From a virus (lineage: Duplodnaviria; Heunggongvirae; Uroviricota; Caudoviricetes), in the IMG/VR virus record IMGVR_UViG_3300033066_001253, positions 13,223-77,222 of that record: a DNA stretch of 64,000 bases, one strand, 5' to 3'. A model generated the notes under the pieces. The model saw only the letters and a list, made by a program, of their open reading frames with translations. It searched no databases and was not told where the DNA came from. A program made the position numbers and the translations under genes. Positions 2,994-19,383 of this stretch are shown here, piece after piece; position 1 is the first letter of the stretch, and each line of letters opens with the position of its first letter.

Positions 2994-4316
2994 TTGTCAT
3001 TTGATGTAAATCAACAAACAGGATTAACAGATTCTAGTGTTATGTTATTTCCGGCTGATGGGTATGGAGATACAGGATTAGTTAGATATTTAATTGAAGC
3101 TGAGAAACCTGATGCAATCATGTTAATAACAGATCCAAGGTATTTCCAATGGTTATTTAATATTGAAAATGAAATTCGTAAGAAAATTCCTATTACTTAT
3201 TTACAAATTTGGGATAGTCCATTTCCCTACCCTTTATGGAATAAACCATTCTATGAATCATGTGATTTATTAATGGCTATTTCAAAACAAACATTAAATA
3301 TTAATAAAGTTGTTTTAGGAGGAGTTCCATTTAGAGAGGTAGGAGATGTTTTAGGTCAACCAAATGAAGATCCAAATTCAAAACGTTCATCTCAAATTTT
3401 ATTAAAATACATCCCTCACGGTTTAAATGAAAATAATTATTTCCCAATAGATAAATCCTATCCAAAATATAAAGAATTTGAAAAATTTAAGAAGGAATTA
3501 TTCAAAGGTAAAGAATATGAGTTTGTTTTATTTTTCAATTCAAGAAACATAAGACGCAAACAAATTCCAGACACTATTCTTGCTTGGAGAATGTTTTTAG
3601 ACAGACTTCCAAAAGAAAAAGCAGATAAATGTTGTTTATTACTTCATACTGAATTAGTAAGTGAACATGGAACTGATTTACCAGCAGTATCAAATTATTT
3701 ATTAGATGAATATTCAGAAAGTATAATTTATCATCAACAAGGTTTAGGTGTTGAACAAATGAATTGGTTATATAATAGTTCAGATGCTCAAATATTGATT
3801 ACTGATAATGAGGGGTGGGGATTAAGTTTAACTGAAGCAATTTTAGCAGGAAGACCAATCATAGCAAATGTACAAGGTGGAATGCAAGATCAAATGAGAT
3901 TTGAAGATACAGAAGGTAATTGGATTGATTTTAATCAAGATTTTCCTTCAAATCATAGAGGTACATTTAAGAAATGTGGATCTTGGGCTTATCCAATATT
4001 TCCATCAAACATTTCTATTCAAGGTTCACCAATGACACCTTATATCAGTTCAGATAGAGTAAGACCTGAAGATGCATCTAATGCTATTATGAATTGTTAT
4101 AATGATGGTCCTGAAGTTAGAAAAATAACAGGTGAAGCAGGAAGAAGATGGGCTACAGGAGATGAAGCAGGATTTACTAGCAAACATCAAGCAGAACGAG
4201 TTATAGAAGCATTTGATGAATTATTCAAAACTTGGAAACCAAGAGAAAAATTTGAACTTATCAATGCTACAGAACATAAGTTAGATGTAACTAGAAAACA
4301 TAAATTAATTTATTAA
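2994..4316 (+). CDS. glycosyltransferase, GT4/GT1-like
   Basis: 440 aa. NEGWGLSLTEAILAGRPIIANVQGG matches the GT4 E(G)FG(L)..EA.a.G.PvIa...GG motif. Track start is TTG; first in-frame ATG is at 3042, so the start is uncertain. Confidence 0.55.
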   Translation: MSFDVNQQTGLTDSSVMLFPADGYGDTGLVRYLIEAEKPDAIMLITDPRYFQWLFNIENEIRKKIPITYLQIWDSPFPYPLWNKPFYESCDLLMAISKQTLNINKVVLGGVPFREVGDVLGQPNEDPNSKRSSQILLKYIPHGLNENNYFPIDKSYPKYKEFEKFKKELFKGKEYEFVLFFNSRNIRRKQIPDTILAWRMFLDRLPKEKADKCCLLLHTELVSEHGTDLPAVSNYLLDEYSESIIYHQQGLGVEQMNWLYNSSDAQILITDNEGWGLSLTEAILAGRPIIANVQGGMQDQMRFEDTEGNWIDFNQDFPSNHRGTFKKCGSWAYPIFPSNISIQGSPMTPYISSDRVRPEDASNAIMNCYNDGPEVRKITGEAGRRWATGDEAGFTSKHQAERVIEAFDELFKTWKPREKFELINATEHKLDVTRKHKLIY

Positions 4317-4317
4317 A

Positions 4318-4608
4318 ATGAACAAACTTCAAAACATAAAAACATTCTTTAAAGAATTTAAATATCTTAAAAAATATTTCTTTCAAGAATTAAATAAAAT
4401 GACCTCTGAAAGACTAATGGTTGAACATTTAGCAAAATATAGTGCTCCTTTAATTAAGGAACATGAATATGATCCTAAAAAATTAGAGAAATATGTTGAA
4501 ATGTGTGAAGGAAAATTTAAAGATAGAAAAATCCCCAACCAAAATTATCTAAAAAAGGAAATTGAAAAATTAGATAATAATATTAATAAATTAGTAAAGA
4601 TAAAATAA
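4318..4608 (+). CDS. hypothetical protein
   Basis: 96-aa ORF, K/E-rich. Confidence 0.35.
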   Translation: MNKLQNIKTFFKEFKYLKKYFFQELNKMTSERLMVEHLAKYSAPLIKEHEYDPKKLEKYVEMCEGKFKDRKIPNQNYLKKEIEKLDNNINKLVKIK

Positions 4609-4611
4609 AAT

Positions 4612-5943
4612 ATGAATAAACCGTTATGCGTACTTAGTTGTGCAATCAATACATACAGTGGTTATGGAGCTCGTGCAAGAGGAATTGCACAAGCAATTAT
4701 TGAATTAAAAAAAGATGAATGGGATATAAAAATCATCCCACAACGTTGGGGCGACACGAGCCAAGGATTTATTGAAGATAATCCTGAATGGTCATTTTTA
4801 AATGAGTATTTACATCTTCATCCACAACTCCCAAAACAACCAGAAATTTTTATTCAACATACTGTTCCTAATGAATTCCAACCTATTGGAAAATATAATA
4901 TAGGTATTACAGCAGGAATAGAATCTGACATTTCAATTCCAGAATGGATTGAAGGTTTAAATCGTATGAATACGACTTGGGTTTCATCTAAACATGCTAA
5001 AACAGTATTTGAAAATTCTAAATTTGAAAAAAAAGATCAACAAGGTAGAACTGTTGGAGTTGTTCAATTAGAAAAACCAATTGAAGTTATATTTGAGGGG
5101 GCTGATTTAAATACTTACAAAGTCTTAGAAAAAAACTTAGAAAATTCAATTAATAAATCTTTTGATTTATTCTCTATTAAAGAAGATTTCTGTTTCCTTT
5201 TCATAGGACATTGGATGCAAGGTGATATTGGAGAAGATAGAAAAAATGTAGGATTATTAGTTAAATCATTTTTCGAAACATTCAAAAATAAACAAAATAA
5301 ACCTGCACTAATCCTAAAATCATCAGGAGCTGTTTCAAGTTATATGGATCGTGATATGCTTTTAAAACGTATCGATCAAATTAAACAAACAGTGAATAGT
5401 AAAGATTTACCAAACATCTATTTATTACATGGTGATTTTACAGATAAAGAAATAAACGAACTGTATAATCATCCTAAAGTAAAAGCAATGGTTTCACTTA
5501 CAAAAGGTGAAGGATTTGGAAGACCATTACTAGAATTCAGCTTATTAAATAAACCAGTAATAGCAAGTAATTGGAGTGGTCATTTAGATTTCTTAGATTC
5601 AAAATACAGTGTATTAATAAATGGTGAATTAAAACAAGTCCATCCTAGTACAGCAAATCAATTCCTAATTAGAGAAAGTAAATGGTTTTCACCTCATTAC
5701 CATGAAATTGGAGAAACTTTAACTAATGTTTATAAACGTTATGATAAATATCTTCCAGATGCTCGTAAACAATCTGAAATTAATAGAGAGAAGTTTAGTT
5801 ATGAAGCTATGAAAAATTTAGTTAAAGAACATTTGGATAAAGTACCTACATTTGCTAGACAAGTAGAATTAAAATTACCAAATTTGAAAGCTCCTGCAGG
5901 TATGAAACAAATTCAATTACCAAAACTTACTAAAATACAATAA
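4612..5943 (+). CDS. glycosyltransferase, GT4-like
   Basis: 443 aa. TKGEGFGRPLLEFSLLNKPVIASNWSG matches the GT4 C-terminal EGFG...E....PVIAs motif. Similar size to the 2994 gene. Confidence 0.5.
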   Translation: MNKPLCVLSCAINTYSGYGARARGIAQAIIELKKDEWDIKIIPQRWGDTSQGFIEDNPEWSFLNEYLHLHPQLPKQPEIFIQHTVPNEFQPIGKYNIGITAGIESDISIPEWIEGLNRMNTTWVSSKHAKTVFENSKFEKKDQQGRTVGVVQLEKPIEVIFEGADLNTYKVLEKNLENSINKSFDLFSIKEDFCFLFIGHWMQGDIGEDRKNVGLLVKSFFETFKNKQNKPALILKSSGAVSSYMDRDMLLKRIDQIKQTVNSKDLPNIYLLHGDFTDKEINELYNHPKVKAMVSLTKGEGFGRPLLEFSLLNKPVIASNWSGHLDFLDSKYSVLINGELKQVHPSTANQFLIRESKWFSPHYHEIGETLTNVYKRYDKYLPDARKQSEINREKFSYEAMKNLVKEHLDKVPTFARQVELKLPNLKAPAGMKQIQLPKLTKIQ

Positions 5944-6516
5944 ATGAATTCACCTATAGATGTTTTATTTTATAAAAAAATAGAAGAAATAGAAAAACAA
6001 ATACCTAAACCTAAATCTAAACAATTAAATGAGTTAAGAGAATATGTTGAAAAAACTCGAGAATTAACTTTTGAACAAATTATAAAAGAATATAGTGATC
6101 CTAGTAAAAGTTATCCCATATTTGATACACCTAATTTAAAAGGAGATGCAATAGGATGGTCTTGTCAATTTGAAGATGATCCTAGATTTGATGCTACTGT
6201 AAAAACAATATCTGATGGAGTTTATCAGTTTGATTTTAATTTCTTTGGAAGTAAAGATTATAACCAAAATCTTACTAAAAAAATAAAAGGAACAGATTAT
6301 ATGAATACTTTACATAAAATAGTTAGAGATAAATTAATTCCTTTTATTGATAAAAAAGAAATAGGAGATACTTTATATTTTAATGTAAATAATAAAGATG
6401 GATTGGGTGAAGCTAGAAAAAAGGTATTCTCTTATTTAATTAATAAATATATTGATAAAAATAAATTTGATATAGAGAATGAAGATTATGATTTTAATAT
6501 AACTAAGATAAAATAA
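5944..6516 (+). CDS. hypothetical protein
   Basis: 190-aa ORF, start overlaps upstream stop (TAAATG). Confidence 0.35.
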   Translation: MNSPIDVLFYKKIEEIEKQIPKPKSKQLNELREYVEKTRELTFEQIIKEYSDPSKSYPIFDTPNLKGDAIGWSCQFEDDPRFDATVKTISDGVYQFDFNFFGSKDYNQNLTKKIKGTDYMNTLHKIVRDKLIPFIDKKEIGDTLYFNVNNKDGLGEARKKVFSYLINKYIDKNKFDIENEDYDFNITKIK

Positions 6517-6524
6517 CTTAAAAA

Positions 6525-6995
6525 ATGACTGATCAATTATCAAATTGCAATAGATGTGGAGGTAATGCTTGTTACGTAACAGAAGTAGCTCCTGGAATTA
6601 AAACATACCAATGTTTTGGATGTGGTTTTTGTGCTTCATCTCCAATGACTGAAGGTAGTGATTTTCTAAAAGAACAAATGGAAGTATTACCTGATCTTTA
6701 CAAATCATTAATGGTTGTAGACGAAGATGGATTAGTTTGGATGCCAACAAATATCAATCTCCCAGAAACAGGAATGATCTTCGCTAATGGTTCATCTTCA
6801 GACAATTGGAAATGGGCTGCTGTTAAAGCAGTTCGAGTTAAAGAAGAAGAAAAAGAGAAATTCAAGAAAAAAGATGGAACTTATTTTGAATGGAAAATGA
6901 ATATGGAGTCTATGAAAGAATTTGATGAGAAGGACTTTATGGAGGCAATGGATTACTTAGGCTTATTTAAAGAGGTCGTGGAATCTAAAAAATAA
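6525..6995 (+). CDS. zinc-ribbon containing hypothetical protein
   Basis: 156 aa. N-terminal CNRCGG ... CFGCGFC (two CxxC pairs). Confidence 0.35.
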   Translation: MTDQLSNCNRCGGNACYVTEVAPGIKTYQCFGCGFCASSPMTEGSDFLKEQMEVLPDLYKSLMVVDEDGLVWMPTNINLPETGMIFANGSSSDNWKWAAVKAVRVKEEEKEKFKKKDGTYFEWKMNMESMKEFDEKDFMEAMDYLGLFKEVVESKK

Positions 6996-7012
6996 TTTCT
7001 TATATTTAAAGT

Positions 7013-7426
7013 ATGAGAGAAATAAAATTTAGAGCGTGGGATTTATACAACAATAGAATGGTTGAAAATCCTTATATTTTTGAAAAAGCAACCAAGCATA
7101 ATAATAATGGTAATGACTTAAATCCTTCATTTATTTTTTATGAAGATTGGAGAGATATTGATGATGGTATTTCAAGACCTTGTCATATAATGCAATATAC
7201 TGGTTTAAAAGATTTGAAAGATATAGAAATTTATGAAGGAGATATTATAAAATCTAATTCAAAAACCAATTTTAAAGTTGTATTTGGAGATGGAAGTAAT
7301 AAATATGATTACATTAATGGATGGATTTTAATAGGAATTCAATCATCTATTCAATGGTTATTATCTGCTGAAGGTAAATATGAAATTATAGGAAATATTT
7401 ACCAAAACCCAGAATTAATAAATTAA
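7013..7426 (+). CDS. YopX family phage protein
   Basis: 137 aa. N-terminal MREIKFRAWD and C-terminal IGNIYQNPELI are the hallmark ends of the YopX domain. Confidence 0.7.
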   Translation: MREIKFRAWDLYNNRMVENPYIFEKATKHNNNGNDLNPSFIFYEDWRDIDDGISRPCHIMQYTGLKDLKDIEIYEGDIIKSNSKTNFKVVFGDGSNKYDYINGWILIGIQSSIQWLLSAEGKYEIIGNIYQNPELIN

Positions 7427-7531
7427 AAGTTATGGAAAATATATTAATAGTGAAAGAATTAATCAACCAAGGGCTACTTGTTGTAGAATCGTAATAACTA
7501 TAGGAGATAATTATTATTTAATAAATATAAA

Positions 7532-7702
7532 ATGAGAGAAAAAGGTTATTATTGGGTTCAATTTGAAGAAATAGGTAAATTTATCATTGCTGAATATTTA
7601 GGAACTGATTGGGGTTGGCAACTACATGGGGGAACTGAATATTATGAAGATAATGATTTTCATTTTATTGACAATGAAAGAATTTTATTTAAAAGTTTAT
7701 AA
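7532..7702 (+). CDS. hypothetical small protein
   Basis: 56-aa ORF, below the track threshold. It fills the gap between the 7013 and 7706 genes. Confidence 0.25.
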   Translation: MREKGYYWVQFEEIGKFIIAEYLGTDWGWQLHGGTEYYEDNDFHFIDNERILFKSL

Positions 7703-7705
7703 AAA

Positions 7706-8356
7706 ATGATTATAACATATGCTATAACAGCTAAAGATGAAGCATCAGAATTAGAACGTCTACTCTCCCATCTTAAAAAACATATCCGAGAAACAGATGA
7801 AGTTATAATTCAACTTGATATTAATCATACTCCAGAAGTTTTAGAAGTATGTAATTTATATACAGGATTTAACCATGAACAAGATTTACATAACACAATC
7901 AAAAATTCTCAATTTTATGTTTTTGCTTTAGATGGTAATTTTGCTCAATTTAAAAATCAATTAAGTAGATTTGCTTCTGGAGATTATATATTCCAAATTG
8001 ATGCTGATGAAATCCCCGAAACTATATTAATTCATAATCTTCCAGAATTATTAGAAAGTAATCCAACAGTTGATTTATTTTTAGTTCCTAGAATTAATAC
8101 TGTTGAGGGTTTAACTGAAGAACATATTAAAAAATGGGGATGGAAAGTAAATGAATATGGTTGGATTAATTTTCCAGATTATCAAACCCGCTTATACAAA
8201 AATTCCAAAGATATAAGATGGGAAGGTAAAGTTCATGAACGAATAGAAGGAGTTAAAACATTTGTAGCTTTACCTGAAAATAATGAATGGGTTCTTATTC
8301 ATGAAAAAGATATTAAACGTCAAGAGAAACAAAACAATTTTTATAATACATTATGA
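7706..8356 (+). CDS. putative GT-A fold glycosyltransferase
   Basis: 216 aa. N-terminal IITYAIT and an acidic DADE motif are weakly reminiscent of DxD glycosyltransferases, and the gene lies in a glycan cluster. Confidence 0.25.
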   Translation: MIITYAITAKDEASELERLLSHLKKHIRETDEVIIQLDINHTPEVLEVCNLYTGFNHEQDLHNTIKNSQFYVFALDGNFAQFKNQLSRFASGDYIFQIDADEIPETILIHNLPELLESNPTVDLFLVPRINTVEGLTEEHIKKWGWKVNEYGWINFPDYQTRLYKNSKDIRWEGKVHERIEGVKTFVALPENNEWVLIHEKDIKRQEKQNNFYNTL

Positions 8357-8763
8357 TAAACCCAAAAGACGTAAGAATAGGAAATTATATTGGATTTGGA
8401 AATTCAACTTGTAAAGTTTACGAAATAAATGAAAAATACTTTTATGTTCTTGATGAAGAAAATACAAGTTTAAAAAGTACATTTACTGATTTAAACCCAA
8501 TTCCTCTAACAGAATCAGAACTTGAAAAATTAGGAGTTATAAAACAATACCAAGAAAATCCATTTGAAGAAGGAAAATATAGTTTAAATGAAGATGGAAC
8601 TAAATATTATAGTTGGGTTAAAGGAGCATTTAATTTAGAAATAAATAAAGATAGTAAAATAATGTTTGAAGTTTATTCTCATTATATTCCAGTAGATTAT
8701 GTTCATCAATTCCAAAACCTATATTATTTATTAACTAACGAAGAATTAACATATATAAAATAA
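8353..8763 (+). CDS. hypothetical protein
   Basis: 136-aa ORF overlapping neighbours by 4 nt. Confidence 0.35.
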   Translation: MINPKDVRIGNYIGFGNSTCKVYEINEKYFYVLDEENTSLKSTFTDLNPIPLTESELEKLGVIKQYQENPFEEGKYSLNEDGTKYYSWVKGAFNLEINKDSKIMFEVYSHYIPVDYVHQFQNLYYLLTNEELTYIK

Positions 8764-9573
8764 ATGAAGATATTTGTAAAATTTTTTGATCCTAAAATAT
8801 TTGAAGATAAATTATCTCATTTGAAACATATTGATTTTTCATTATTTATTGATGATATTCCAAAAACACAAGATGATCTATCTTCAATTAATATAATAGT
8901 TCTACAGGAACCTAATGGTTATTTTGGTTTATCAGATTGGACTATTCAAAATAAAGACATATTCCAGGCAATATTAACTTGGGATGATAGAGTATTAAAT
9001 AATTGTGAACAAGCTATATTTTTACCATTTGGACATAGTTGGTTCAAACCAGACCAATACATAACTCCAAAACCTAAAAAATTTGAAATAGCTCATTTAT
9101 GTGGAGTTTTAAATAAAACATATGGTCATTCAATGAGACATGAAATAATGGCTCGTAAAAATGAATTTAAATGTCCTACTAATTTTCATCAAACAATAGG
9201 AGATAGACATAATTTAGATGATGCTCGATTAGGTAAAGAAACAGTGTTTGGGAATTCACAGTTTGGAATTTGCATTGAGAATTTTTCACATAGAGGTTAT
9301 TTTACTGAAAAAATATTAGATTGTTTTTTAATGCGGACTATTCCAATTTATTGGGGTTGTTCGAACATATATGATTTCTTTAATATAGACGGTGTAATAC
9401 GCGTAAATAATGTAGATGATATAATTTATTGGTCTGAAACATTGGAAGGTAATTATGAATTAAGAATAGAGGTAATTGAAGAAAATTATCAATTAGCTTT
9501 AAAATATATAGACTATGAACAAAATATAGTTAATAAGGTAGAAGAAATATTTAAATTAAATAATTTAATATAA
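8764..9573 (+). CDS. GT10-like glycosyltransferase (alpha-1,3-fucosyltransferase-like)
   Basis: 269 aa. FGICIENFSHRGYFTEKILDCFLMRTIPIYWGC closely matches the FucT (GT10) signature FENS..YvTEK....F...IPiywG. Confidence 0.6.
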   Translation: MKIFVKFFDPKIFEDKLSHLKHIDFSLFIDDIPKTQDDLSSINIIVLQEPNGYFGLSDWTIQNKDIFQAILTWDDRVLNNCEQAIFLPFGHSWFKPDQYITPKPKKFEIAHLCGVLNKTYGHSMRHEIMARKNEFKCPTNFHQTIGDRHNLDDARLGKETVFGNSQFGICIENFSHRGYFTEKILDCFLMRTIPIYWGCSNIYDFFNIDGVIRVNNVDDIIYWSETLEGNYELRIEVIEENYQLALKYIDYEQNIVNKVEEIFKLNNLI

Positions 9574-9574
9574 G

Positions 9575-10726
9575 ATGGAAATAAAAAGAAAAATATGGTA
9601 TGCTCCTAATAAGTTTGAATCTTATGGAGAGGAAGAAATTAAAGCTGTTGAAAGTTGTCTTCGTGATGGTTGGTTAGCAGGATTTGGTCCAAAAAGCATT
9701 GAGTTTGAAAAAAGAATTGCAAAAGTTTTTGGTAAAAAATATGGTGTATTTGTTAACTCGGGTTCATCAGCTAATTTATTAGCATTAGCTTGTTTAAAAT
9801 TACCCAAAGGAAGTGAAGTAATAACCCCAGCATGTACATTTAGTACAACATTATCTCCAATACTTCATTTAGGTTTAAAACCTGTTTTTGTTGATGTTAA
9901 ATTAGATGGATATGTTCCTTTTTTATTATCTATACTTGATAAAATTACTCCAATAACAAAGGCAATTATAATCCCAAATCTTATTGGGAATAAAATTGAT
10001 TGGGATTATTTAAAAGAATTATTATTTGATGAGGGAAGGGGAGATATTGTTTTAATTGAAGATTCTTGCGATACTATTTCTGAAACACTTGGAAGTGACA
10101 TTTCAACTACTTCATTTTATGCTTCTCATATTATAACAGCAGGAGGAGCTGGAGGTATGGTAATGTTTAATGATGAAAAATTAAGAGACATAGCATTACA
10201 ATTTAGAGATTGGGGTAGAATGGGAGATAATTCAGAAATAATGAGTGAGAGATTTAGTCATGAAGTAGATGGGATTCCTTATGATCATAAATTTTTATAT
10301 GATGTTTTAGGTTACAACTTTAAATGTAGTGAAATGAATGCTGCCTTTGGATTAGTACAATTGGAACGTTTTGAACAATTTAAACAAATAAGAAGACAAA
10401 ATATTGAAAGATATTTAGAAAATCTTAAAAATGTAAAAGAAATATTATTACCTGATGATAGTATTAAACCAAACTGGTTAGCAATCCCTTTACAAACAGA
10501 AAGAAGATTAGAATTATTAAAATTTTTAGAAGATAATAACATTCAAACTAGAGTTACATTTTCAGGTAATATTACAAGACATCCAATTTATAGAGAATAT
10601 TTACAAGAATTCAAAAATTCAGATATAATAATGGCTAATGGGTTTCTCTTAGGAGCTCATCATGGAATGACGGTAGAAGATGTAGATTATGTTTGTGATA
10701 AAATCAAAGAATTTTTTAACAAATGA
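9575..10726 (+). CDS. DegT/DnrJ/EryC1/StrS-family PLP/PMP enzyme with His in place of the active-site Lys (sugar 3-dehydratase-like)
   Basis: 383 aa. GVFVNSGSSANLLALA is typical of the family. The Schiff-base position reads SFYASHII (His) instead of SFxxxK, as in ColD/E1 3-dehydratases. Confidence 0.75.
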   Translation: MEIKRKIWYAPNKFESYGEEEIKAVESCLRDGWLAGFGPKSIEFEKRIAKVFGKKYGVFVNSGSSANLLALACLKLPKGSEVITPACTFSTTLSPILHLGLKPVFVDVKLDGYVPFLLSILDKITPITKAIIIPNLIGNKIDWDYLKELLFDEGRGDIVLIEDSCDTISETLGSDISTTSFYASHIITAGGAGGMVMFNDEKLRDIALQFRDWGRMGDNSEIMSERFSHEVDGIPYDHKFLYDVLGYNFKCSEMNAAFGLVQLERFEQFKQIRRQNIERYLENLKNVKEILLPDDSIKPNWLAIPLQTERRLELLKFLEDNNIQTRVTFSGNITRHPIYREYLQEFKNSDIIMANGFLLGAHHGMTVEDVDYVCDKIKEFFNK

Positions 10727-11676
10727 TTAAAGTAGTATATATAACAGGTTGTTTAGGATTTATAGGATCTTATATTACAAGAACTTGTCTTGAAAAAGGT
10801 TGGTATGTTAAAGGTGTAGATAAAATTACATATGCTGCTAATAAAGATTTATTAGATGAATTTAAAAAATATCCTAATTTTTCATTTGTTCACTGTGATA
10901 TAAATGATTTAAAATTTTTATATGATTGTGACTATGTGATTAATGCTGCTGCCGAAACTCATGTTGGGAACTCAATAGCAAGTAGTGTTGAATTTATTAA
11001 ATCAAATATTGATGGTGTTCATAATTTACTAGAATTAATAAAAAATCATAGAGGGGAAAATATTAAAAAACCAACATTAATTCATTTCAGTACTGATGAA
11101 GTTTATGGAGATATAGACAAAGGAGCTCATACTGAAATAGATTTGTTAAAACCAAGCAACCCATATTCAGCAACAAAAGCAGCAGCAGACATGTTAATAA
11201 TGGCTTGGGGTCGAACACATAAAATACCTTATATCATTGTTAGACCAACCAACAATTATGGAGTAGGCCAATATGTGGAAAAACTTATTCCTAAAACATG
11301 TAAATACCTTAAATTAGGAAAGAAAATACCTTTACATAATAACGGATCTCCTATTCGAAATTGGTTACATGCTCAAGATACAACTGATGCTATTATAGCA
11401 ATTATAAAATCAGAAGTTGAAAATGAAATTTTTAATATTTGTGGAAGTTTTGAACAAAGTAATTTGGATACTGTAAAGAAAATTCTTATATTTAATAATC
11501 TAGATTTAGAAGATATAAATAAATATATTGATTGGTCATGTGATAGACCTGGACAAGATGTTAGGTATTCCTTAGATGATTCTAAATTAAGAAATTTGGG
11601 TTGGAAACCTAAAAAACAATTTGATAAAGAATTACAATCAATAATAAATTATTATAAAAATAAATTTATATGGTAA
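10723..11676 (+). CDS. NDP-hexose 4,6-dehydratase (RmlB-like SDR)
   Basis: 317 aa. TGCLGFIGS Rossmann motif, HFSTDEVYG and YSATKAA (YxxxK) match dTDP/CDP-glucose 4,6-dehydratases. Confidence 0.75.
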   Translation: MIKVVYITGCLGFIGSYITRTCLEKGWYVKGVDKITYAANKDLLDEFKKYPNFSFVHCDINDLKFLYDCDYVINAAAETHVGNSIASSVEFIKSNIDGVHNLLELIKNHRGENIKKPTLIHFSTDEVYGDIDKGAHTEIDLLKPSNPYSATKAAADMLIMAWGRTHKIPYIIVRPTNNYGVGQYVEKLIPKTCKYLKLGKKIPLHNNGSPIRNWLHAQDTTDAIIAIIKSEVENEIFNICGSFEQSNLDTVKKILIFNNLDLEDINKYIDWSCDRPGQDVRYSLDDSKLRNLGWKPKKQFDKELQSIINYYKNKFIW

Positions 11677-13457
11677 AGAAAAAAGCATTAGAATTTATTG
11701 TAGATTGTTTAATCCATAATGATATAAATACATTTTTTTTAGTTACGGGTGGTGCTATTGTTCCTACAATTGATTATATAGGAACCAATACTAATGCTAG
11801 ATATTATTGTTTCCAACATGAACAATCAGCAGCAATGGCTGCTGAATCATATTATAGAATAACAGGAAAATTAGGAGTAGTATTAAGCACTAGTGGTCCC
11901 GGTGCTCAAAATTTATTAAATGGAATATGTGGTTGTTGGTATGACTCAATCCCATGTTTATTTATCACTGGTCAAGTTAGTACTTATGAATCTATAAATT
12001 CAATAAAATCTAATCCTCGACAATTAGGTTTTCAAGAAATGCCCGTAGTTGAATCATTTAAACCTTTTACTAAATATATCAAACAAATAAATATTAATAC
12101 AATTAAAGATGATATCTATCAAGCTATTACATCTGCTTTAGAAGGACGCCCAGGACCTAGTTTATTAGATTTTCCAGTAGATGTTCAATTATCTGAAGTT
12201 GAGGATGATTTATTTAAAATTAAAAAACCTAAATTATCTATAAATAATAACATAATATATTCTATAGATTTACTAAAAAATAAACTTTCTAATTCAAAAA
12301 GACCATTATTGTTATTAGGACATGGTATTAGATTATCGGATGCTGTAAATGAAATTAAAGAATTAATCAATAAATTAAACATACCTTTTGTTGTATCTTG
12401 GGGAGGTTTTGATTTAATTGAACATTCTCATTCTAATTTTATAGGTACTATAGGAGTATATGGTAGTAGAGGTGGTAACTTCGCAATTCAAAATTGTGAC
12501 TTATTAATTTCAATAGGATCAAGATTAGACACTAGACAAACAGGAGGAGATTTAAAAACATTCTCTCGTAATTCTTATAAAGTAATGGTAGATATTGATT
12601 TAAATGAAATCAATAAAGGAAGAGGATTAAATATTGATCTACCTATTAATTGTGATGCCAAAATTTTTATTAATTCATGTTTAAATATTTTAGAACCTAT
12701 TAATATTGAAAAAGATTGGAAAAAACAATGTTTAGATTGGAGTAACCTTAATTTAGATAAACGAGAACCTAAAGAAAATTTATTAACATCTTATGAATTT
12801 TTAGAAGAATTAAATCATCACCTTGATGATGATTCTATAATAATCCCAGATGAAGGAGGACATTTGGTTTGGTCAATGCAATCATTAAAAACCAAACCAA
12901 ACCAAAGAATATTTTCTAATTTTGGTAACTCATCAATGGGATATAGTCTTCCAGCATCTATAGGGGCATCTATTGCTACCAACAAACAAGTAATTTGTAT
13001 AGATGGAGATGGTGGATTTCAAATGAATATTCAAGAATTACAAACTGTAAAACATTATAATTTACCTATTAAAATATTTATAATGAATAATAATTGTTAT
13101 GGTATTATTAAACAATTCCAAGATACATATTTTGATTCTAGATATATTGCTACTGAAGAACAAGATTATTCTGTTCCTAATTTTATTAAAATAGCAGAGG
13201 CTTATGGTATAAAATCAATAGAAGCTAATAAAAATAATTATAAGGAAGTTATTAATTTGGCTCTCAAAGAAAAAGATAGTATATTGGTGAATGTAATTAT
13301 AGATAAAGAACAAAAATTGATACCTAAATTAGAATTTGGAAATCCTTTGGAAGATATGTTTCCATATTTAGATGATGATTTAATAAAAGAAAACATGATT
13401 ATACCAATGATACCGAGAAAAGATAATACTCAAGGATGGGTAACTTTAAATAAATAA
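11670..13457 (+). CDS. thiamine-diphosphate-dependent enzyme, acetolactate-synthase-like (YerE-like C-C branching candidate)
   Basis: 595 aa. N-terminal TGGAIVPTIDY ... FQHEQSAAMAAESYYRITGK ... STSGPGAQNL is the ThDP pyrimidine-binding domain. IDGDGGFQMNIQEL ... MNNNCYG is the GDG-x24-NN ThDP motif. Confidence 0.85.
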   Translation: MVKKKALEFIVDCLIHNDINTFFLVTGGAIVPTIDYIGTNTNARYYCFQHEQSAAMAAESYYRITGKLGVVLSTSGPGAQNLLNGICGCWYDSIPCLFITGQVSTYESINSIKSNPRQLGFQEMPVVESFKPFTKYIKQININTIKDDIYQAITSALEGRPGPSLLDFPVDVQLSEVEDDLFKIKKPKLSINNNIIYSIDLLKNKLSNSKRPLLLLGHGIRLSDAVNEIKELINKLNIPFVVSWGGFDLIEHSHSNFIGTIGVYGSRGGNFAIQNCDLLISIGSRLDTRQTGGDLKTFSRNSYKVMVDIDLNEINKGRGLNIDLPINCDAKIFINSCLNILEPINIEKDWKKQCLDWSNLNLDKREPKENLLTSYEFLEELNHHLDDDSIIIPDEGGHLVWSMQSLKTKPNQRIFSNFGNSSMGYSLPASIGASIATNKQVICIDGDGGFQMNIQELQTVKHYNLPIKIFIMNNNCYGIIKQFQDTYFDSRYIATEEQDYSVPNFIKIAEAYGIKSIEANKNNYKEVINLALKEKDSILVNVIIDKEQKLIPKLEFGNPLEDMFPYLDDDLIKENMIIPMIPRKDNTQGWVTLNK

Positions 13458-13480
13458 ACAAATATCAAATTTTTTAAAAT

Positions 13481-14404
13481 ATGGCAGCAGATAGTAAAAC
13501 TAAAAAAACTATTTTAACATTAACAGGGAATAAAATAAAAAAAGAAAAAACAGTATTAGTTACTGCTTATGACTACCCCCAAGCAATTTTAGCAGACAGA
13601 GCAGGGGTAGATTGCATTTTGGTTGGTGATTCCTTAGGAATGACTCAACTAGGATATAAAACAACAATTCCTGTTACAATGGAAGATATGATTAGAAGTT
13701 GTGAAGCAGTTAGTAGAGGTTCCCAAAATGCTTTTTTGATTGGAGATATGCCTTATATGTCTTATCAACAATCAGATGAATTAGCTATTGAAAATGCAGG
13801 TAGATTTATAAGAGCAGGAATGGATATGGTAAAAGTAGAAGGAGCTATGGTTGAGCGTGTAAGAGCAATATCTAAAGCTGGGATTATGGTTATGAGTCAT
13901 TTAGGACTAACCCCTCATACCAGAGCAAAATTAGGTGGTTATAAAGTTCAAGGAAAAACAGCAGATCAAGCGGATATTATTTTACAACAAGCCTTAACCT
14001 TACAAGAAGCAGGTTGTTCAGCTTTATTATTAGAAGCTATGCCTAAAGAACCTGCAGAAATGATTGCTAAAAAATTATCCATTCCTGTTTATGGGATTGG
14101 TGGTGGAGATGGAGTTGATGGACAATTAGTAATATTTCATGATTTAACAGGTTTATTTTGGGAATTTAAATCTAAATTTGTTAAACGTTATTGTGAAGCT
14201 GGGAAGATTATTCAAGATGCTTTAGAACAATATGTTAATGAGGTTAAATCAGGAATATTTCCTTCCCCGGATAATTTTTATGAAATTAAAGAAGATGAAT
14301 TAGAAAAATTGTTGGGTGATGATAAATGGAAATATGAAAAAGATAGAGTAGAAAATAATACTACTCCCAATCATAGTGTTACACCAATTACTATTAATAA
14401 ATAA
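13481..14404 (+). CDS. PanB-like 3-methyl-2-oxobutanoate hydroxymethyltransferase family protein
   Basis: 307 aa. VTAYDYPQAILADRAGVDCILVGDSLGMTQLGY is near-identical to the PanB/KPHMT signature. It is not in a pantothenate context here. Confidence 0.7.
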   Translation: MAADSKTKKTILTLTGNKIKKEKTVLVTAYDYPQAILADRAGVDCILVGDSLGMTQLGYKTTIPVTMEDMIRSCEAVSRGSQNAFLIGDMPYMSYQQSDELAIENAGRFIRAGMDMVKVEGAMVERVRAISKAGIMVMSHLGLTPHTRAKLGGYKVQGKTADQADIILQQALTLQEAGCSALLLEAMPKEPAEMIAKKLSIPVYGIGGGDGVDGQLVIFHDLTGLFWEFKSKFVKRYCEAGKIIQDALEQYVNEVKSGIFPSPDNFYEIKEDELEKLLGDDKWKYEKDRVENNTTPNHSVTPITINK

Positions 14405-15207
14405 TGGATATTCTGATTACTGGAGGTAATGGTTATATTGCTAAAAGCATTTATAATAATTTTAGTAATAAATATAATATAACTAGAATTACCCGAAATG
14501 ATTTTGATTTATCTGATAAAAAAAGTACTGATAAATGGTTTAAGGGAAAATATTTTGATTTTGTAATCCATACTGCTATAAAGGGAGGAAGTAGATTAAA
14601 AGAAGATCCTTTAGATATAACTCATCAAAACGTTTCAATGTTTTATAATTTATTAAATAATAAAAACTGTTTTGGAAATTTAATAAATATAGGATCAGGA
14701 ATAGAAGATTCAAAACTTAATTCCCCCTATGTTTTAAGCAAAAAAATTATTAGTGATTTGATAAAACAATTACCTAATTTTTACAATATTAGAGTATTTG
14801 GTGTATTTGATGAAAATGAATTAAAAACTAGATTTATTAAAAATAATATTTTTAATTATATAAATCACCAACCACTAGAAATTTACCAAAACATAAAAAT
14901 GGATTTATTTTACATGAAAGATTTTATTAAAATCATATCTTATTATCTAGAATCAAATTATAATTTCGATCCACCTCAAAAACAATTAAATTGTTCTTAT
15001 CATAATAAATCAACTTTATTAGACACAGCAAAATTAATAAATAATTTAGGAACTCATAAATGTAATATAAAAATTCATAATCCTCAATATGGAGATGATT
15101 ATATAGGAATATGTAATACTCCTAAAATAGATAATGGGGATTTCATAATAGAATATTTAGGATTAGAATATGGGATTAAAGAAACATATGATATTTTAAA
15201 AAAATGA
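14404..15207 (+). CDS. NAD(P)-dependent sugar-nucleotide reductase/epimerase, RmlD-like
   Basis: 267 aa. N-terminal ILITGGNGYIA Rossmann motif; short SDR of the dTDP-4-dehydrorhamnose reductase type. Confidence 0.5.
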   Translation: MDILITGGNGYIAKSIYNNFSNKYNITRITRNDFDLSDKKSTDKWFKGKYFDFVIHTAIKGGSRLKEDPLDITHQNVSMFYNLLNNKNCFGNLINIGSGIEDSKLNSPYVLSKKIISDLIKQLPNFYNIRVFGVFDENELKTRFIKNNIFNYINHQPLEIYQNIKMDLFYMKDFIKIISYYLESNYNFDPPQKQLNCSYHNKSTLLDTAKLINNLGTHKCNIKIHNPQYGDDYIGICNTPKIDNGDFIIEYLGLEYGIKETYDILKK

Positions 15208-16148
15208 ATATTAAATTGATGTTACATATAATGCCTTGGGAAATAGATCAAGCATTGATGGTTGTTGACAAATTAAAAAAATCCACATATTATTTAGAAA
15301 ATGAAAATAAAATATTTATTAATACTGTTTTAAATTTATCCGATTCAATTATAGATTGGAATAAATCTAACATTCCAAAAGAATTTTTTATAAAAAAATA
15401 TAAAATAATATGTAATTTATTATCTTCTTATTATATTCATACTTCTCTCATATATGAAGGAGATAAAACATATGGTCATTTAGATTTACAAAAAACCTCA
15501 ATTTCAAAAGAAATAGATTATTATATTTACATATGTGCTGATATAGATTTTTCAGAACATTTATTATTCTATTTAATAGAATCAGCGAAACAAATCCATA
15601 ATGAATATTTTATCTTAACCCCTCAAATATTTAAAAGTTGGGATTCAAGTTGGGATATTTTAGTTAATGATAAATTCAAAAATATCCCTTATGAAAAATG
15701 TATTGATATAGATATTCATGAAATTAGATATCAATGTTTAGATTTAGATAATCCTAATGTTAAATCTATAGACCAATTTAAATTTGCTGGTTGGTTTGAT
15801 TTATATAATAAAAATTTTTATGAAAAATTAGTTCCTGTATTAGATGAATGGAATGGATATGGACCTTGGGATTTATATTCAATGAATATTTGTAATATAG
15901 CTAAACAATATGGAGTTGATGTGCAACAATATATTTTAGAAAATCAAATAACATGGTTTTCAGATGTAGGATGCCTTAGAAACTTTGAAGAATATGGGGG
16001 AGATGGACAGTTAAAAACATTATATAAAAATTTCCTAAATTTAAAACTTGGAAGACAAGAACAAAGATCTTATATTGATAAAAATTTAAATAAATATTTG
16101 AACCAATGGTTTGAATATGCTAAACAAAACCAAATAATAAATGTATAG
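15204..16148 (+). CDS. hypothetical protein in glycan cluster
   Basis: 314-aa ORF, no recognised motif. Embedded in the sugar operon. Confidence 0.4.
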
Positions 16149-16764
16149 CGAACCTGAAAAAAATGATCATCCTGATAGAATCAGAAAAGTTGGTAAATAT
16201 ACTTATGGTATAAATAATATTTGTATATATTATTGGGCTAATGGAAATTGGACAAAAGACGGAACAAAACTCCCAGAACCTGCATATCTTGAAATAGGAA
16301 ATTATTGTTCAATTTCAGGACATATTTTAATATACATGGGGGGTAATCACCATTATGAATGGGCATCTCAATATCCTTTTGGACATATTCACCAAAATGT
16401 TTTTAATAAATTTAATGGAGAAGGTCAACCATGGTCTAAAGGAAATGTGATTATAGGAAATGATGTTTGGATAGGAACATGTGCTACTATCCATAGTGGA
16501 GTAACAATTGGGGATGGAGCAGTAATAGCTTCTAATGCTGTAATAACAAAAGATGTAGAACCTTATTCTATAGTAGGAGGAAACCCTGCTAAATTTATTA
16601 AATATAGATTCCCAAAAGAAATTAGAGATAAATTATTAGAGTATAAATGGTGGGATTTGGATGATTATATTATAGATCATATTTCTCCACTATTATGTTC
16701 TGGTGATTTTGAAAATTTATTTAGAGTATTAGATGAAATTAAACAACAATTAAAAAACAATTAA
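16141..16764 (+). CDS. hexapeptide-repeat (left-handed beta-helix) acetyltransferase
   Basis: 207 aa. [46 protein letters not shown] shows canonical [LIV]G hexapeptide repeats of sugar/xenobiotic O-acetyltransferases. Confidence 0.8.
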
Positions 16765-16766
16765 AA

Positions 16767-17465
16767 ATGAAAACAATTACTACATATGAAGAGTTAATTG
16801 ATGATCTCTACAGTAATAATGTGACAATGGTTCACCCATCATTTATAAACTCAATACTAAACTTCTACCCAAACATATCCAAAGTAGAAGGAGATATTTT
16901 AGAATGTGGAGTCTGGAAAGGAGGAGTTTCAATATTCCTTAGTCATTTATTTAATGATAGAAATATTTGGGTGAGTGATTCATATCAAGGATTCCAACCT
17001 TTATCTCATGCTACTTATGAATATGATAAAGAAAGACATACTCCTGAATATACTCATTGTGCTAATGGTCCTATAGGAATTAGTTTAGAAGAAGTTAAAG
17101 CTAATTTTGAAAAATACGGTTTAGGAAATGAAGAAAGAATTAAGTTTTTAAAAGGATTTGTTAAAGATACTTTACCTACTTCAGGGATTGAAAAATTAGC
17201 TTTATTAAGAATTGATGTTGATGCCTATTCTGCTACTTTAGAAGTACTAAATGAAATGTATGATAAAGTTCAACCTGGAGGATATATTATTTTTGATGAC
17301 TCATGTCTATATGAGGTAATTGATGCTCTTAAAGTATTTTTTAAGCAAAAGAATTTAGAGGAATATATTTTTCACCCTCTCACAAATGAAAAATTAAATC
17401 TACATCTTAAGTATACTAACGATGACTCAGGATTTCCAACTGGGTGTTATATAATTAAACAATAA
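16767..17465 (+). CDS. TylF/MycF-family SAM-dependent O-methyltransferase
   Basis: 232 aa. GDILECGVWKGGVSIFL and RIDVDAYSATLEVL ... GGYIIFDD match the macrocin-O-methyltransferase fold. Confidence 0.65.
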   Translation: MKTITTYEELIDDLYSNNVTMVHPSFINSILNFYPNISKVEGDILECGVWKGGVSIFLSHLFNDRNIWVSDSYQGFQPLSHATYEYDKERHTPEYTHCANGPIGISLEEVKANFEKYGLGNEERIKFLKGFVKDTLPTSGIEKLALLRIDVDAYSATLEVLNEMYDKVQPGGYIIFDDSCLYEVIDALKVFFKQKNLEEYIFHPLTNEKLNLHLKYTNDDSGFPTGCYIIKQ

Positions 17466-18163
17466 TGAAACTTATCTACAGAATCTCAGACGCAGGTTAT
17501 AATAAAATAAAACCTAACTATATAAATAATGAAAATTGTTTAAGAAACGCTATAAAAATATTTCCGTGGTTAGAATATGATTGGTCTATCATAGCTGATA
17601 ATATATCTGAAGAAACAAGTAATATGATTCAAAAATATATTCCTAGAGATCATATTAATTATGTTTCTGTAGGACATGGAGCTGGTACATTTAATTTAGC
17701 TTTAGATGAAGCATTACAAAGTCCTGATGATGAAATAATTTATTTTTTAGAGAACGATTATTTACATAAACCAAACTCTGATAAAATATTACAAGAAGGA
17801 TTTGATCTAGGAGCATCTTTTGTGTCATTATATGATTGCCCAGATAAGTATTTAGATCCATCTGATGGAGGAAACCCATATTGTGAAGGTGGGGCTGAAG
17901 ATACTAGAGTATATTTAACTGATTCTTGTCATTGGAAAATAACAAATAGTACAACAATGACCTTTGCTTCTAAAGTGTCAACTTTAAAACAAACTGAGTC
18001 TATTCTTAGAAAATGGACTAATATGGGGCCTTATCCACAAGATTTTAAAATGTTTCTTGAATTAAGAGATAATAATAAATTATTAATTACACCAATGCCT
18101 GGGTATTCAACTCATGGAGAAACAGCTTGGTTATCACCTTTAACAAATTGGAGTGAAATATGA
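17465..18163 (+). CDS. hypothetical protein in glycan cluster
   Basis: 232-aa ORF, ATG overlaps upstream stop. Confidence 0.4.
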   Translation: MKLIYRISDAGYNKIKPNYINNENCLRNAIKIFPWLEYDWSIIADNISEETSNMIQKYIPRDHINYVSVGHGAGTFNLALDEALQSPDDEIIYFLENDYLHKPNSDKILQEGFDLGASFVSLYDCPDKYLDPSDGGNPYCEGGAEDTRVYLTDSCHWKITNSTTMTFASKVSTLKQTESILRKWTNMGPYPQDFKMFLELRDNNKLLITPMPGYSTHGETAWLSPLTNWSEI

Positions 18164-19383
18164 AAAAATATATACCTATAACCCAATGTCCTATTACAGG
18201 ACATGATGAGCAAATCAAATATTTTGATTTAGGAAATATTCCTTTAGTGAATAATCTATGTAATACTAGAGAAGAAGCACTTAATGCTGAAAAATTTCCT
18301 CTAAACATTAACTATTATCCCTCATCAGGAGAATCCTCATTAAGTATAGCAATTGATGGAGAACTTTTATTCTCACATTATCTATTTAAATCTGAAGTAA
18401 ATAAGCCATATTATGGACATTGCCAGGAAATGTTTAGATATGCTCAGGAATATGTTAAAGTAAAGGATGGAACAAAAATTGTTGATATTGGAGGAAATGA
18501 TGGTTCATTACTTGATGCTTTTAGAAGTATTAGTAATAAAAAACTAGAATTATTAAATATTGATCCATCCCAAAATTTAGCTAAACTAAATACTGAAAAA
18601 AATATACCATTTTTAACTAAATTTTTCTCATATGATATAGCTAAAACCTTAAATAAAACAGATATAATTACTTCTACAAATGTATTTCAACATTTATTTG
18701 ATATAAATTCATTTGTTAAAGGAATTGAATGTTTATTAAATGAAAATGGTATTTGGGTTTTGGAATTTCCATATTGGATTAATAGTATGGAAACTAATCA
18801 ATTTGATCAAATATATCATGAACATGTTTTTTATCATTCTGTTACACCTATGAAAATGATGATGGAAAAACATAATATGAAAATCATTAATATAACTGAA
18901 CAAAACATTCATGGAGGGACTTTACGACTTATAATTACTAAAAAGGATTCTATACTTACTCCTGACAACACGATTGATGAATATTTAGAATATGAAAAGA
19001 AATATGATTTAGAATATCACACTAAATGGGGTAAAGAAGTCCAAAATCATATCATTAATTCAAAAGAATTTATTAACAAATTAAAAAAAGAAGGTAAAAC
19101 AATTTTTGGTTTTGGTGCCGCTGCTAAAGGATGTATTTACATGAATGCAATGGATTTAACTCATCAAGATATTGATTGTGTAATTGATGATACTGATATT
19201 AAACAAAATAAATATATTCCTGGGGTTGGAATACAGATTGTAAATCGTGATATTTTAAAAACAACCCAACCAGATTATATTTTAATCTTAGCTCATAATT
19301 TTAAAGATTACATAATTGAATCATTAAAAAATGAATATAAGGGGAAATTTATTATATTAATACCTACTCCTCAAATACTCTAA
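18160..19383 (+). CDS. NDP-hexose C-methyltransferase-like SAM-dependent methyltransferase
   Basis: 407 aa. N-terminal C..TGH ... DLGNIPLVNNL and central VDIGGNDGSLL (SAM motif I), with size and layout like TylC3/TcaB9 sugar C3-methyltransferases. Confidence 0.5.
   Translation: MKKYIPITQCPITGHDEQIKYFDLGNIPLVNNLCNTREEALNAEKFPLNINYYPSSGESSLSIAIDGELLFSHYLFKSEVNKPYYGHCQEMFRYAQEYVKVKDGTKIVDIGGNDGSLLDAFRSISNKKLELLNIDPSQNLAKLNTEKNIPFLTKFFSYDIAKTLNKTDIITSTNVFQHLFDINSFVKGIECLLNENGIWVLEFPYWINSMETNQFDQIYHEHVFYHSVTPMKMMMEKHNMKIINITEQNIHGGTLRLIITKKDSILTPDNTIDEYLEYEKKYDLEYHTKWGKEVQNHIINSKEFINKLKKEGKTIFGFGAAAKGCIYMNAMDLTHQDIDCVIDDTDIKQNKYIPGVGIQIVNRDILKTTQPDYILILAHNFKDYIIESLKNEYKGKFIILIPTPQIL

Follow-up and report, generated by a model that had tools for sequence, protein, structure and literature searches.

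A PanB-type hydroxymethyltransferase gene beside a YerE-like carboligase gene in a phage sugar operon: a putative pathway for acyl-branched deoxysugars

Pathways for the branched sugars erwiniose, caryophyllose, and gastriose have been described in Pectobacterium atrosepticum (Erw proteins), Mycobacterium marinum (MMAR proteins), and M. gastri (Myg proteins) (PMC9306805). In these pathways, an aldolase (ErwI with ErwJ, MMAR_2331, or MygI) makes a gamma-hydroxy 2-keto acid, a homologue of YerE (ErwE, MMAR_2332, or MyGE) couples this acid to CDP-4-keto-3,6-dideoxyglucose, and a reductase, ErwF, then acts on the branch ketone (Steitz et al. 2022, PMC9306805). ErwE rejects pyruvate and accepts 4-hydroxy-2-oxobutanoate, -pentanoate, and -hexanoate (PMC9306805). 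A 2025 review of the YerE-type enzymes, which depend on thiamine diphosphate (ThDP), names viruses as unexplored. We analysed 64,000 nucleotides (nt) of DNA from a virus of the class Caudoviricetes (IMG/VR record IMGVR_UViG_3300033066_001253, positions 13,223 to 77,222), referred to here as the window, in which a gene for a predicted YerE/ErwE-like ThDP-dependent carboligase (11670..13457, + strand) is followed by a gene for a predicted PanB-type 2-keto-acid hydroxymethyltransferase (13481..14404, + strand). PanB, a C–C bond-forming enzyme that canonically yields a 4-hydroxy-2-keto acid, thus adjoins the ThDP gene. We found no description in the literature of PanB together with YerE-like enzymes, branched sugars, or phage or O-antigen loci.

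A sequence-only reading of this DNA had interpreted the two genes as a C–C bond-forming pair in a glycan locus. Both open reading frames (ORFs) were found to be intact, with the start of PanB located 24 nt past the last base of the ThDP stop codon, leaving an intergenic gap of 23 nt. The description of the pair as "fused in operon" holds for the shared operon but not for the proteins, which are separate. The genes are arranged in the order sugar 3-dehydrase, nucleoside diphosphate (NDP)-hexose 4,6-dehydratase, ThDP enzyme, PanB, and reductase of the short-chain dehydrogenase/reductase (SDR) family, and throughout 9575-19383 the gene junctions either overlap or are separated by gaps of no more than 23 nt. 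The assignment to a glycan locus is borne out by the 4,6-dehydratase, the dehydrase similar to E1 of Yersinia, the SDR, and the methyltransferase, acyltransferase, and glycosyltransferase-like ORFs found there. By analogy with the erwiniose-type pathways, we propose with moderate confidence that the operon at 9575-15207 is a virus-borne pathway for an acyl-branched sugar, with PanB in the place of the aldolase.

The ThDP enzyme consists of 595 amino acids and was assigned from its three ThDP domains, its matches in the PDB, and a neighbor-joining (NJ) tree. The Pfam domains TPP_enzyme_N (4.5e-29), TPP_enzyme_M (1.9e-30), and TPP_enzyme_C (2.6e-39) were all detected above the gathering score, and the ThDP motif, IDGDGGFQM followed after 24 residues by NN, was located at G446-D447-G448 and N473-N474, consistent with the full-length enzyme that had been claimed. 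The ThDP-activating Glu, whose absence would have marked a catalytically dead protein, is present as E51 in H50-E51-Q52. Alignment with 15 divergent viral homologues revealed no variation in either E51 or GDG-X24-NN. The best score with models for acetohydroxyacid synthase (AHAS) was 388 bits, compared with a cut-off of 538 (TIGR00118), and the protein fell under every AHAS equivalog cut-off. The best PDB matches were 5AHK (317 bits) and 8RPH (314 bits), whereas true AHAS scored no higher than 228 bits. We take 5AHK to be PpYerE, which fits the numbering of V479 after subtraction of a 20-residue tag. Entry 8RPH is JanthE, a characterized YerE-like carboligase that accepts ketones (PMC12188165). 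PpYerE and JanthE, the solved YerE-like structures, were the only characterized YerE-like anchors of the ThDP tree, which was rooted on three AHAS sequences and constructed without bootstrap; in it the window enzyme, its viral homologues, 40 bacterial homologues, PpYerE, and JanthE formed one clade. The PDB scores and the tree place the predicted enzyme with the YerE-like ketone-accepting carboligases, apart from the acetolactate synthases, in agreement with the analogy to YerE that had been drawn. As had also been noted, a regulatory partner is lacking: no ORF for an AHAS small subunit follows the ThDP gene and no ilv genes are located near it, in contrast to Salmonella, in which ilvM follows ilvG. 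The statement that neither enzyme belongs to classical nucleotide-sugar pathways requires correction, given that YerE-type enzymes are part of a known, albeit rare, pathway of this kind.

The product of the adjoining ORF (307 amino acids) matched Pfam Pantoate_transf (PF02548) with 324 bits (7e-97) and exceeded the cut-offs of the NCBIfam models TIGR00222 (281 bits versus 207.55) and NF001452 (313 bits versus 272). The motifs TAYDYPQA and VGDSLGMTQLGY, which had been quoted as a near-canonical PanB signature, were both present. In the match to E. coli PanB (1M3U, 2e-58), residues D45, S46, D84, K112, E114, H136, E181, and I202 were conserved, and I212 was replaced by Leu. The first seven of these are presumably the residues with metal, substrate, or catalytic roles in the E. 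coli PanB structure. Of the presumed ligands of the carboxylate and Mg, D45, D84, K112, and E114 were invariant; S46 is kept in the window protein and is replaced by Thr in one viral subgroup. E. coli PanB takes several 3-substituted 2-oxoacids, with I202 and I212 tuning its scope (PMC7611260). A structure model was obtained with AlphaFold2 (predicted local distance difference test score, pLDDT, 77; predicted template modeling score, pTM, 0.80), and a fold search with it returned 28 PanB chains first, with target-normalized template modeling (TM) scores of 0.83-0.93 (0.90-0.93 for structures of the 1M3U/1O66 type). Other members of the isocitrate lyase/phosphoenolpyruvate (PEP) mutase superfamily scored approximately 0.55, with methylisocitrate lyases being the next best. 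The model showed no added NDP-binding element. Judged by sequence, modeled fold, and catalytic residues, the predicted protein is a PanB.

The same results leave practically no room for a phosphonate pathway, in which PEP mutase and phosphonopyruvate decarboxylase would give rise to a 2-aminoethylphosphonate decoration of a glycan. Such pairs occur in polysaccharide loci, PEP mutase shares its fold superfamily with PanB, and phosphonopyruvate decarboxylase is itself a ThDP enzyme. However, the NCBIfam matches were to PanB models exclusively and not to any PEP-mutase model, the gap in TM score between PanB and other folds is wide, and the PanB catalytic set is complete. In addition, the ThDP protein is a three-domain, YerE-like protein of 595 amino acids, and no 2-aminoethylphosphonate transaminase was seen next to the pair. 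The family scores effectively refute this candidate.

With regard to pantothenate synthesis, the window protein is a bona fide member of the PanB family, but the host-like panBCD context that had been raised as an objection to a role in glycan synthesis was not found: tblastn detected neither panC nor panD, be it in the 64 kb of the window, which represents part of the phage genome, or across 156 viral loci totaling 2.84 Mb. A Pfam scan of approximately 25 window ORFs likewise revealed no family of the pantothenate pathway, with panE not being sought by homology. In an NJ tree, the PanB proteins of sugar loci, including those of bacterial polysaccharide loci, formed a clade with 100/100 bootstrap support relative to 13 canonical PanB proteins; the canonical sample did not include Bacteroidota, Actinobacteria, or Archaea, so that the separate clade is provisional. 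Common to the sugar-locus PanB proteins are a C-terminal helix, ELEKLLG, and, after it, a Trp that does not vary, W283 (protein residues 267-307). The tail after W283 is disordered in the AlphaFold2 model, and similar tails without the Trp are present in PanB proteins of Firmicutes. We also considered residues diagnostic of a "glycan PanB": five positions separated the clade from 8 references, and this pattern dissolved against 150 family representatives.

The pairing of the two genes is conserved. A search of IMG/VR with PanB alone yielded at least 115 relatives (68-96% identity), and the ThDP gene directly adjoined PanB in 78 of the 80 PanB-seeded loci examined from among them; one of the remaining two is cut at a contig end and the other has the ThDP gene two ORFs away. 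When PanB-seeded and ThDP-seeded loci were pooled and dereplicated to 132 loci, both genes were found in 113 of these non-redundant viral loci and were directly adjacent in 108 of the 113. The other five loci (L150, L148, L149, L152, and L076) contain one ORF between PanB and the ThDP gene. In L150 (9989-11750), this ORF is the second half of a split ThDP gene (340 + 250 amino acids), and L148, L149, and L152 look like L150 in cluster tables; the two-ORF form reflects either a truly split enzyme or a shared frameshift. Both orders of PanB and the ThDP gene occur among the viral loci. The PanB-ThDP pairing is not due to chance, and the conserved adjacency supports the earlier proposal that the two enzymes are functionally linked in a sugar pathway. 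The label "unusual" is less apt, given how common the pair is in viral contigs and its additional occurrence in polysaccharide loci of bacteria.

The partner ThDP enzymes were only 31-73% identical to that of the window, compared with 68-96% for PanB, and the PanB-linked ThDP enzymes were spread over several separate lineages of the YerE-like clade in the NJ tree. Comparison of these sequences suggests that the ThDP gene has been repeatedly replaced beside a stable PanB. Given the varied ThDP lineages beside a conserved PanB, the linkage appears to have outlasted replacement of the ThDP gene. Within six genes of the ThDP gene (n = 131 loci), we found a 3-dehydrase in 109 loci, a 4,6-dehydratase in 92, and an SDR in 83. 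The His-type dehydrase accounted for 121 of 123 neighbors of the DegT family and was located no more than 7 kb from the ThDP gene in 108 of the 131 viral loci. In L001, PanB and the ThDP enzyme were 96% and 73% identical, respectively, to those of the window. The corresponding values for L003 were 84% and 36%, with 77% for the 4,6-dehydratase.

Three viral loci (L141, L143, and L146), some of which are labelled as giant-virus metagenome-assembled genomes, do not contain PanB; instead, an HMGL-like aldolase of the BphI/ErwI family adjoins the ThDP gene. On the basis of their gene content, these loci appear to represent the erwiniose-type scheme in viruses. An HMGL-like aldolase is also located beside the ThDP gene in several bacterial YerE-like loci. 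This swap of aldolase and PanB, in the three viral loci and in the bacterial ones, is the strongest comparative argument for PanB as the builder of the donor.

Of 80 ThDP loci sampled from species-representative genomes, one was PanB-linked, a value that describes a sample among the matches listed rather than a frequency. This locus, L160 (119-14433), belongs to a Bacteriovoracales single-cell genome, and its PanB-ThDP pair is surrounded by genes for a cytidine monophosphate-type cytidylyltransferase, a radical S-adenosylmethionine (SAM)/SPASM protein, a GNAT protein, a DegT protein, an ABC transporter, and an SIS-HAD protein. Its sugar context differs from that of the phage operon. With the PanB of L160 as the query, a protein search (8000 candidates at E <= 1e-20) gave at least 119 homologues with 63-68% identity among the matches listed, and many of them are on long bacterial contigs, some of which are named Odoribacter or Prevotellaceae. 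Two kinds of bacterial locus were distinguished. Type A loci (L243, L244, L247, and L248) encode a nucleoside triphosphate (NTP)-transferase, an E1-like dehydrase, a 4,6-dehydratase, an SDR, PanB, and the ThDP enzyme, and they constitute the module of the phage operon. The SDR directly adjoins PanB-ThDP in bacterial loci, forming an SDR-PanB-ThDP triad. Type B loci (L245, 4801-8631; L246, 3806-7591) encode an HpcH/HpaI-type lyase, a MaoC/mesaconyl-CoA-hydratase-like protein, a second HpcH/HpaI-type lyase, PanB, and a hexapeptide transferase, do not contain a ThDP enzyme, and include one contig named Odoribacter splanchnicus; the cassette probably directs the synthesis of an acyl decoration of an unusual kind. 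A type A PanB (P0215) and a type B PanB (P0225) were 98% identical.

These distributions bear on the view that PanB is an auxiliary metabolic gene that raises pantothenate and CoA synthesis in the host, its position next to the ThDP gene being incidental. The protein does score above the NCBI equivalog cut-off for PanB, and its nearest relatives outside the clade (45-51% identity) carry the same catalytic pattern. The pair is nevertheless adjacent in both gene orders and with ThDP lineages that are 31-38% identical, PanB is encoded within a sugar operon that shows translational coupling, no panC or panD was detected in the 2.84 Mb searched, and the triad recurs in bacterial polysaccharide loci, whose PanB proteins belong to the 100/100 NJ-bootstrap clade. 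We therefore regard a role as an auxiliary gene as very improbable.

In the pathway that we propose, the 4,6-dehydratase and the His-type 3-dehydrase, as assigned by family, would convert host-supplied NDP-glucose to an NDP-4-keto-3,6-dideoxyhexose. PanB would hydroxymethylate a free 2-keto acid from the host at C3, with 5,10-methylene-tetrahydrofolate as the source of the group, to yield a 4-hydroxy-2-keto acid, a chemistry expected because its active site is fully conserved. Ketoisovalerate, 2-oxobutanoate, and possibly pyruvate are candidate substrates: the predicted products are ketopantoate from 2-ketoisovalerate, 4-hydroxy-3-methyl-2-oxobutanoate from 2-oxobutanoate, and 4-hydroxy-2-oxobutanoate from pyruvate. 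PanB would thus be the counterpart of ErwI, MMAR_2331, and MygI, performing a one-carbon aldol extension of the donor acid with a formaldehyde equivalent. By analogy with ErwE, MMAR_2332, and MyGE, the YerE-like enzyme would then decarboxylate the acid and join the resulting acyl-anion equivalent to the sugar at its C4 ketone, and this addition would generate a tertiary alcohol with a 3-hydroxyacyl branch. Reduction of the branch ketone by the SDR would give a 3,6-dideoxy-4-C-(1,3-dihydroxyalkyl)hexose, which downstream methyl- and acyltransferases and phage glycosyltransferases might tailor and attach to an acceptor. A branched-chain sugar derived from a 2-keto acid, one of the outcomes suggested by the sequence-only reading, is thus the likely end product.

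That PanB acts first, on a free 2-keto acid, is the most likely order. Given that 98%-identical PanB proteins occur in loci with and without a ThDP enzyme, the substrate of PanB would appear to be independent of the ThDP product, and this argument, along with the retention of the ligands for the carboxylate and Mg, favors PanB as the first enzyme. The less likely of the two options that had been suggested originally, a YerE-type addition followed by hydroxymethylation, is the reverse order: the ThDP enzyme would add an acetyl group from pyruvate, as YerE does, and PanB would hydroxymethylate the methyl group of the branch on the NDP-sugar, the final branch still being 1,3-dihydroxypropyl. The loss of PanB in relatives whose ThDP enzymes are 70-84% identical, as expected for optional tailoring, and the resemblance of the window enzyme at five hotspots to PpYerE, which uses pyruvate, speak for this order. 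PanB chemistry, however, requires a Mg-chelated 2-keto-carboxylate, the ligands for which are kept, and the modeled fold offers no additional element for binding NDP. The bacterial loci with a 98%-identical PanB and no ThDP enzyme also argue against it, and in the one tested precedent the analogous order is ruled out by the rejection of pyruvate by ErwE (PMC9306805). We consider the reverse order unlikely.

Several observations weigh against the pathway with PanB as donor builder. In viral loci without PanB, the identity of the ThDP enzyme to PanB-linked ones reaches 84%, so that PanB is dispensable in close relatives; this fits a host-supplied acid and an optional tailoring step equally well. 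Mapping of the JanthE hotspots V121, Y268, P293, Y297, and K567 revealed no pattern that separates PanB-linked, aldolase-linked, and unlinked ThDP enzymes, and at these five positions the window enzyme resembles pyruvate-using PpYerE. Ketopantoate has a quaternary carbon beside the carbonyl, which would crowd the new bond, and it may be a poor donor for a ThDP enzyme. The subgroup of P0215 and P0225 is approximately 45% identical to the window PanB, which limits the argument from their 98% identity. Finally, no sugar nucleotidyltransferase is encoded in the window, a point that concerns the carrier nucleotide.

The first gene of the operon, at 9575..10726 (+), encodes a predicted pyridoxamine 5'-phosphate-type NDP-4-keto-6-deoxyhexose 3-dehydrase (E1/RfbH-like; Pfam DegT_DnrJ_EryC1, 1.8e-74) that matched NCBIfam RfbH with 277 bits, under the cut-off, and for which the best PDB match was Yersinia E1 (3BCX, 211 bits, versus 146 bits for ColD). 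A His residue replaces the Lys that binds pyridoxal 5'-phosphate (SFYASHIIT). Yersinia E1 contains a Cys-rich [2Fe-2S] segment (RDCYCAPGCDNTC) that is missing from the window protein and retained in a bacterial homologue in L247. Because no gene for an E3-type reductase was found near the 3-dehydrase, the enzyme may act in a ColD-like manner without a reductase partner. The second gene, at 10723..11676 (+), encodes a predicted RmlB-like NDP-glucose 4,6-dehydratase (TIGR01181, 302 bits versus a cut-off of 365; Pfam GDP_Man_Dehyd and Epimerase) with TDE and YxxxK motifs, and it overlaps its two neighbors by 4 and 7 nt. The extended-SDR reductase at 14404..15207 (+; Pfam Epimerase, 1.6e-12, and RmlD_sub_bind) contains the motifs TGGNGYIA and YVLSK, and its start overlaps the stop of PanB; it is a candidate for the branch-ketone reductase, in the role of YerF or ErwF. 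The conserved ORF that follows, at 15204..16148 (+; 314 amino acids), had no Pfam match, is located directly after the SDR gene in the window's clade of viral loci, and may encode a transferase or a tailoring enzyme of the pathway. Farther downstream on the + strand are genes for a hexapeptide acyltransferase (16141-16764; Pfam Hexapep, NCBIfam CatB/Vat-like), a TylF-like O-methyltransferase (16767-17465; Pfam TylF, 7e-43), a protein similar to glycosyltransferase family 2 (GT2) (17465-18163; weak match to Pfam Glycos_transf_2), and a TylC3-type sugar C-methyltransferase (18160-19383; Pfam Methyltransf_14, 3e-34). The genes at 16141-19383 may serve either for extra decoration of the branched sugar or for the making of a second modified sugar.

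The SDR and the acyltransferase bear on a further alternative, a module for pantoate or pantoyl groups in which the ThDP enzyme would act as an acetolactate synthase on the valine-pathway route to 2-ketoisovalerate, PanB would form ketopantoate, and the SDR would reduce this to pantoate for an acyl or ester decoration of the glycan in place of a carbon branch. We judge such a module to be quite improbable. PanB is canonical in every sequence test, the hexapeptide acyltransferase is encoded two genes downstream, and the bacterial type B loci pair PanB with an acyltransferase in the absence of a ThDP enzyme, all as this alternative would have it. The ThDP enzyme is, on the other hand, YerE-like rather than an AHAS and lacks a small subunit, we saw neither an IlvC nor an IlvD gene, and the SDR is of the sugar-nucleotide extended type and not of the PanE/ApbA or IlvC type. 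Moreover, the genes that are conserved alongside the pair in viral loci include the 4,6-dehydratase and the 3-dehydrase but not the acyltransferase.

The operon is preceded by a block of glycosyltransferase genes (2994..9573, +; Pfam matches at or just above the gathering score) that is syntenic in related viral loci. It includes, all on the + strand and identified with Pfam, two GT1-like genes (2994-4316 and 4612-5943), a GT2 gene (7706-8356), and a GT10-like gene (8764-9573), with small ORFs without an assigned function and a YopX gene located between them. At least six ORFs of the sugar locus are glycosyltransferase-like. The region from 96 to 24174 contains 27 ORFs, all of which lack a transmembrane-like segment, and no flippase, polymerase, or lipid-carrier transferase was found among them. 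This hints that a soluble target, perhaps virion proteins, might be glycosylated in the cytoplasm. In related phages, a HAD + NTP_transferase fusion is encoded two genes past the SDR (15 of 132 viral loci; L154, 12604-13962). The 4,6-dehydratase was not found by tblastn in L018 or L019, which belong to the contig family of L154.

The window has a G+C content of approximately 26%, and the + strand holds the genes of the region studied as well as almost all others. It is phage-like, with ORFs for a PD-(D/E)XK exonuclease, YopX, an RNA ligase, and an endolysin-like protein and with many small ORFs. A collection of 50,697 GenBank phage records contained no match to 10 kb of the window (megablast) or to a 552-amino acid window protein (tblastn). 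In the same records, tblastn matches reached no more than 46% identity for PanB and 33% for the ThDP enzyme, and the PanB-ThDP pair was present in no matched record. Many of the matching records are bacterial-looking or unverified. The entries AFYI01000001.1, MW495066.1 (257-270 kb), and OR84xxxx of this collection resemble bacterial chromosome sequence, and their PanB and AHAS matches provide no evidence for phage genes; examples are a Salmonella whole-genome shotgun contig with panB-panC-panD and a region of "Microcystis phage MaAM05" with panB, panC, and sufBCD.

Should the proposed pathway operate, a folate-dependent hydroxymethyltransferase would join the means known so far of making branched sugars, namely methylation by SAM, acyloin addition by ThDP enzymes, and aldolase-built donors. 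A new family of branched deoxysugars would then have been predicted from sequence alone, a use proposed by the authors of the unifying scheme (PMC9306805). Given that the module is present in more than 110 viral contigs and on many long bacterial contigs, an unrecognized sugar might be widespread on phage particles and bacterial surface polysaccharides. The annotation of viral panB genes as auxiliary genes of cofactor metabolism would call for caution. Biocatalysis already makes use of PanB as well as of YerE-like enzymes, and a natural cascade from PanB to the ThDP enzyme would be of direct use for making chiral tertiary alcohols. A more specific and far-reaching version of the proposal is one that we put forward only tentatively and think somewhat doubtful. 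According to it, ketopantoate or a close hydroxymethylated 2-keto acid produced by the viral PanB would be diverted from vitamin B5 metabolism, and the ThDP enzyme would use it as the donor in making a new class of sugars, 3,6-dideoxy-4-C-(1,3-dihydroxy-2,2-dimethylpropyl or -2-methylpropyl)hexoses. A large group of uncultivated phages and giant-virus-like contigs would present these sugars on virions or on infected cells, and bacteria would carry them on surface polysaccharides (some of the contigs being named Bacteroidales); folate-dependent one-carbon transfer would be a general and hitherto unrecognized route to glycan side chains.

Comparison with known systems shows which parts of the locus are familiar. 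Relative to the PanB proteins of pantothenate synthesis (E. coli, 1M3U; Neisseria meningitidis, 1O66), the window protein is 40-46% identical and keeps all functional residues, but it is encoded in a sugar operon, whereas the genes for the canonical references adjoin panC. The AHAS large subunits (IlvB, IlvG, and IlvI) have the same three-domain architecture, GDG-X24-NN motif, and activating Glu as the window ThDP enzyme, which nevertheless scores approximately 90 bits lower against AHAS than against the YerE-like structures and has neither a regulatory subunit nor ilv neighbors. The yersiniose A pathway of Yersinia pseudotuberculosis (YerE/YerF) relies on the same types of 4,6-dehydratase, E1-type 3-dehydrase, carboligase subclass, and later reductase; YerE takes pyruvate directly without a donor builder, however, whereas the system of the window is all but obligatorily linked to PanB. 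The erwiniose-type pathways share with the window a deoxy-keto-sugar module, a YerE-like carboligase, a C–C bond-forming enzyme (in the window only the putative donor builder), and a reductase, all in one cluster. They differ in that their donor builder is a pyruvate aldolase of the BphI or HpcH type rather than folate-dependent PanB, and in that their branches comprise C4-C7, compared with a predicted C3-C5 with a primary alcohol for the window. The carrier in the case of the window is a phage genome, and its 3-dehydrase does not have the Fe-S segment of E1. The scheme for acyl-branched sugars is thus itself known, and what is new is the predicted use of a folate-dependent PanB as its donor builder, borne by a phage.

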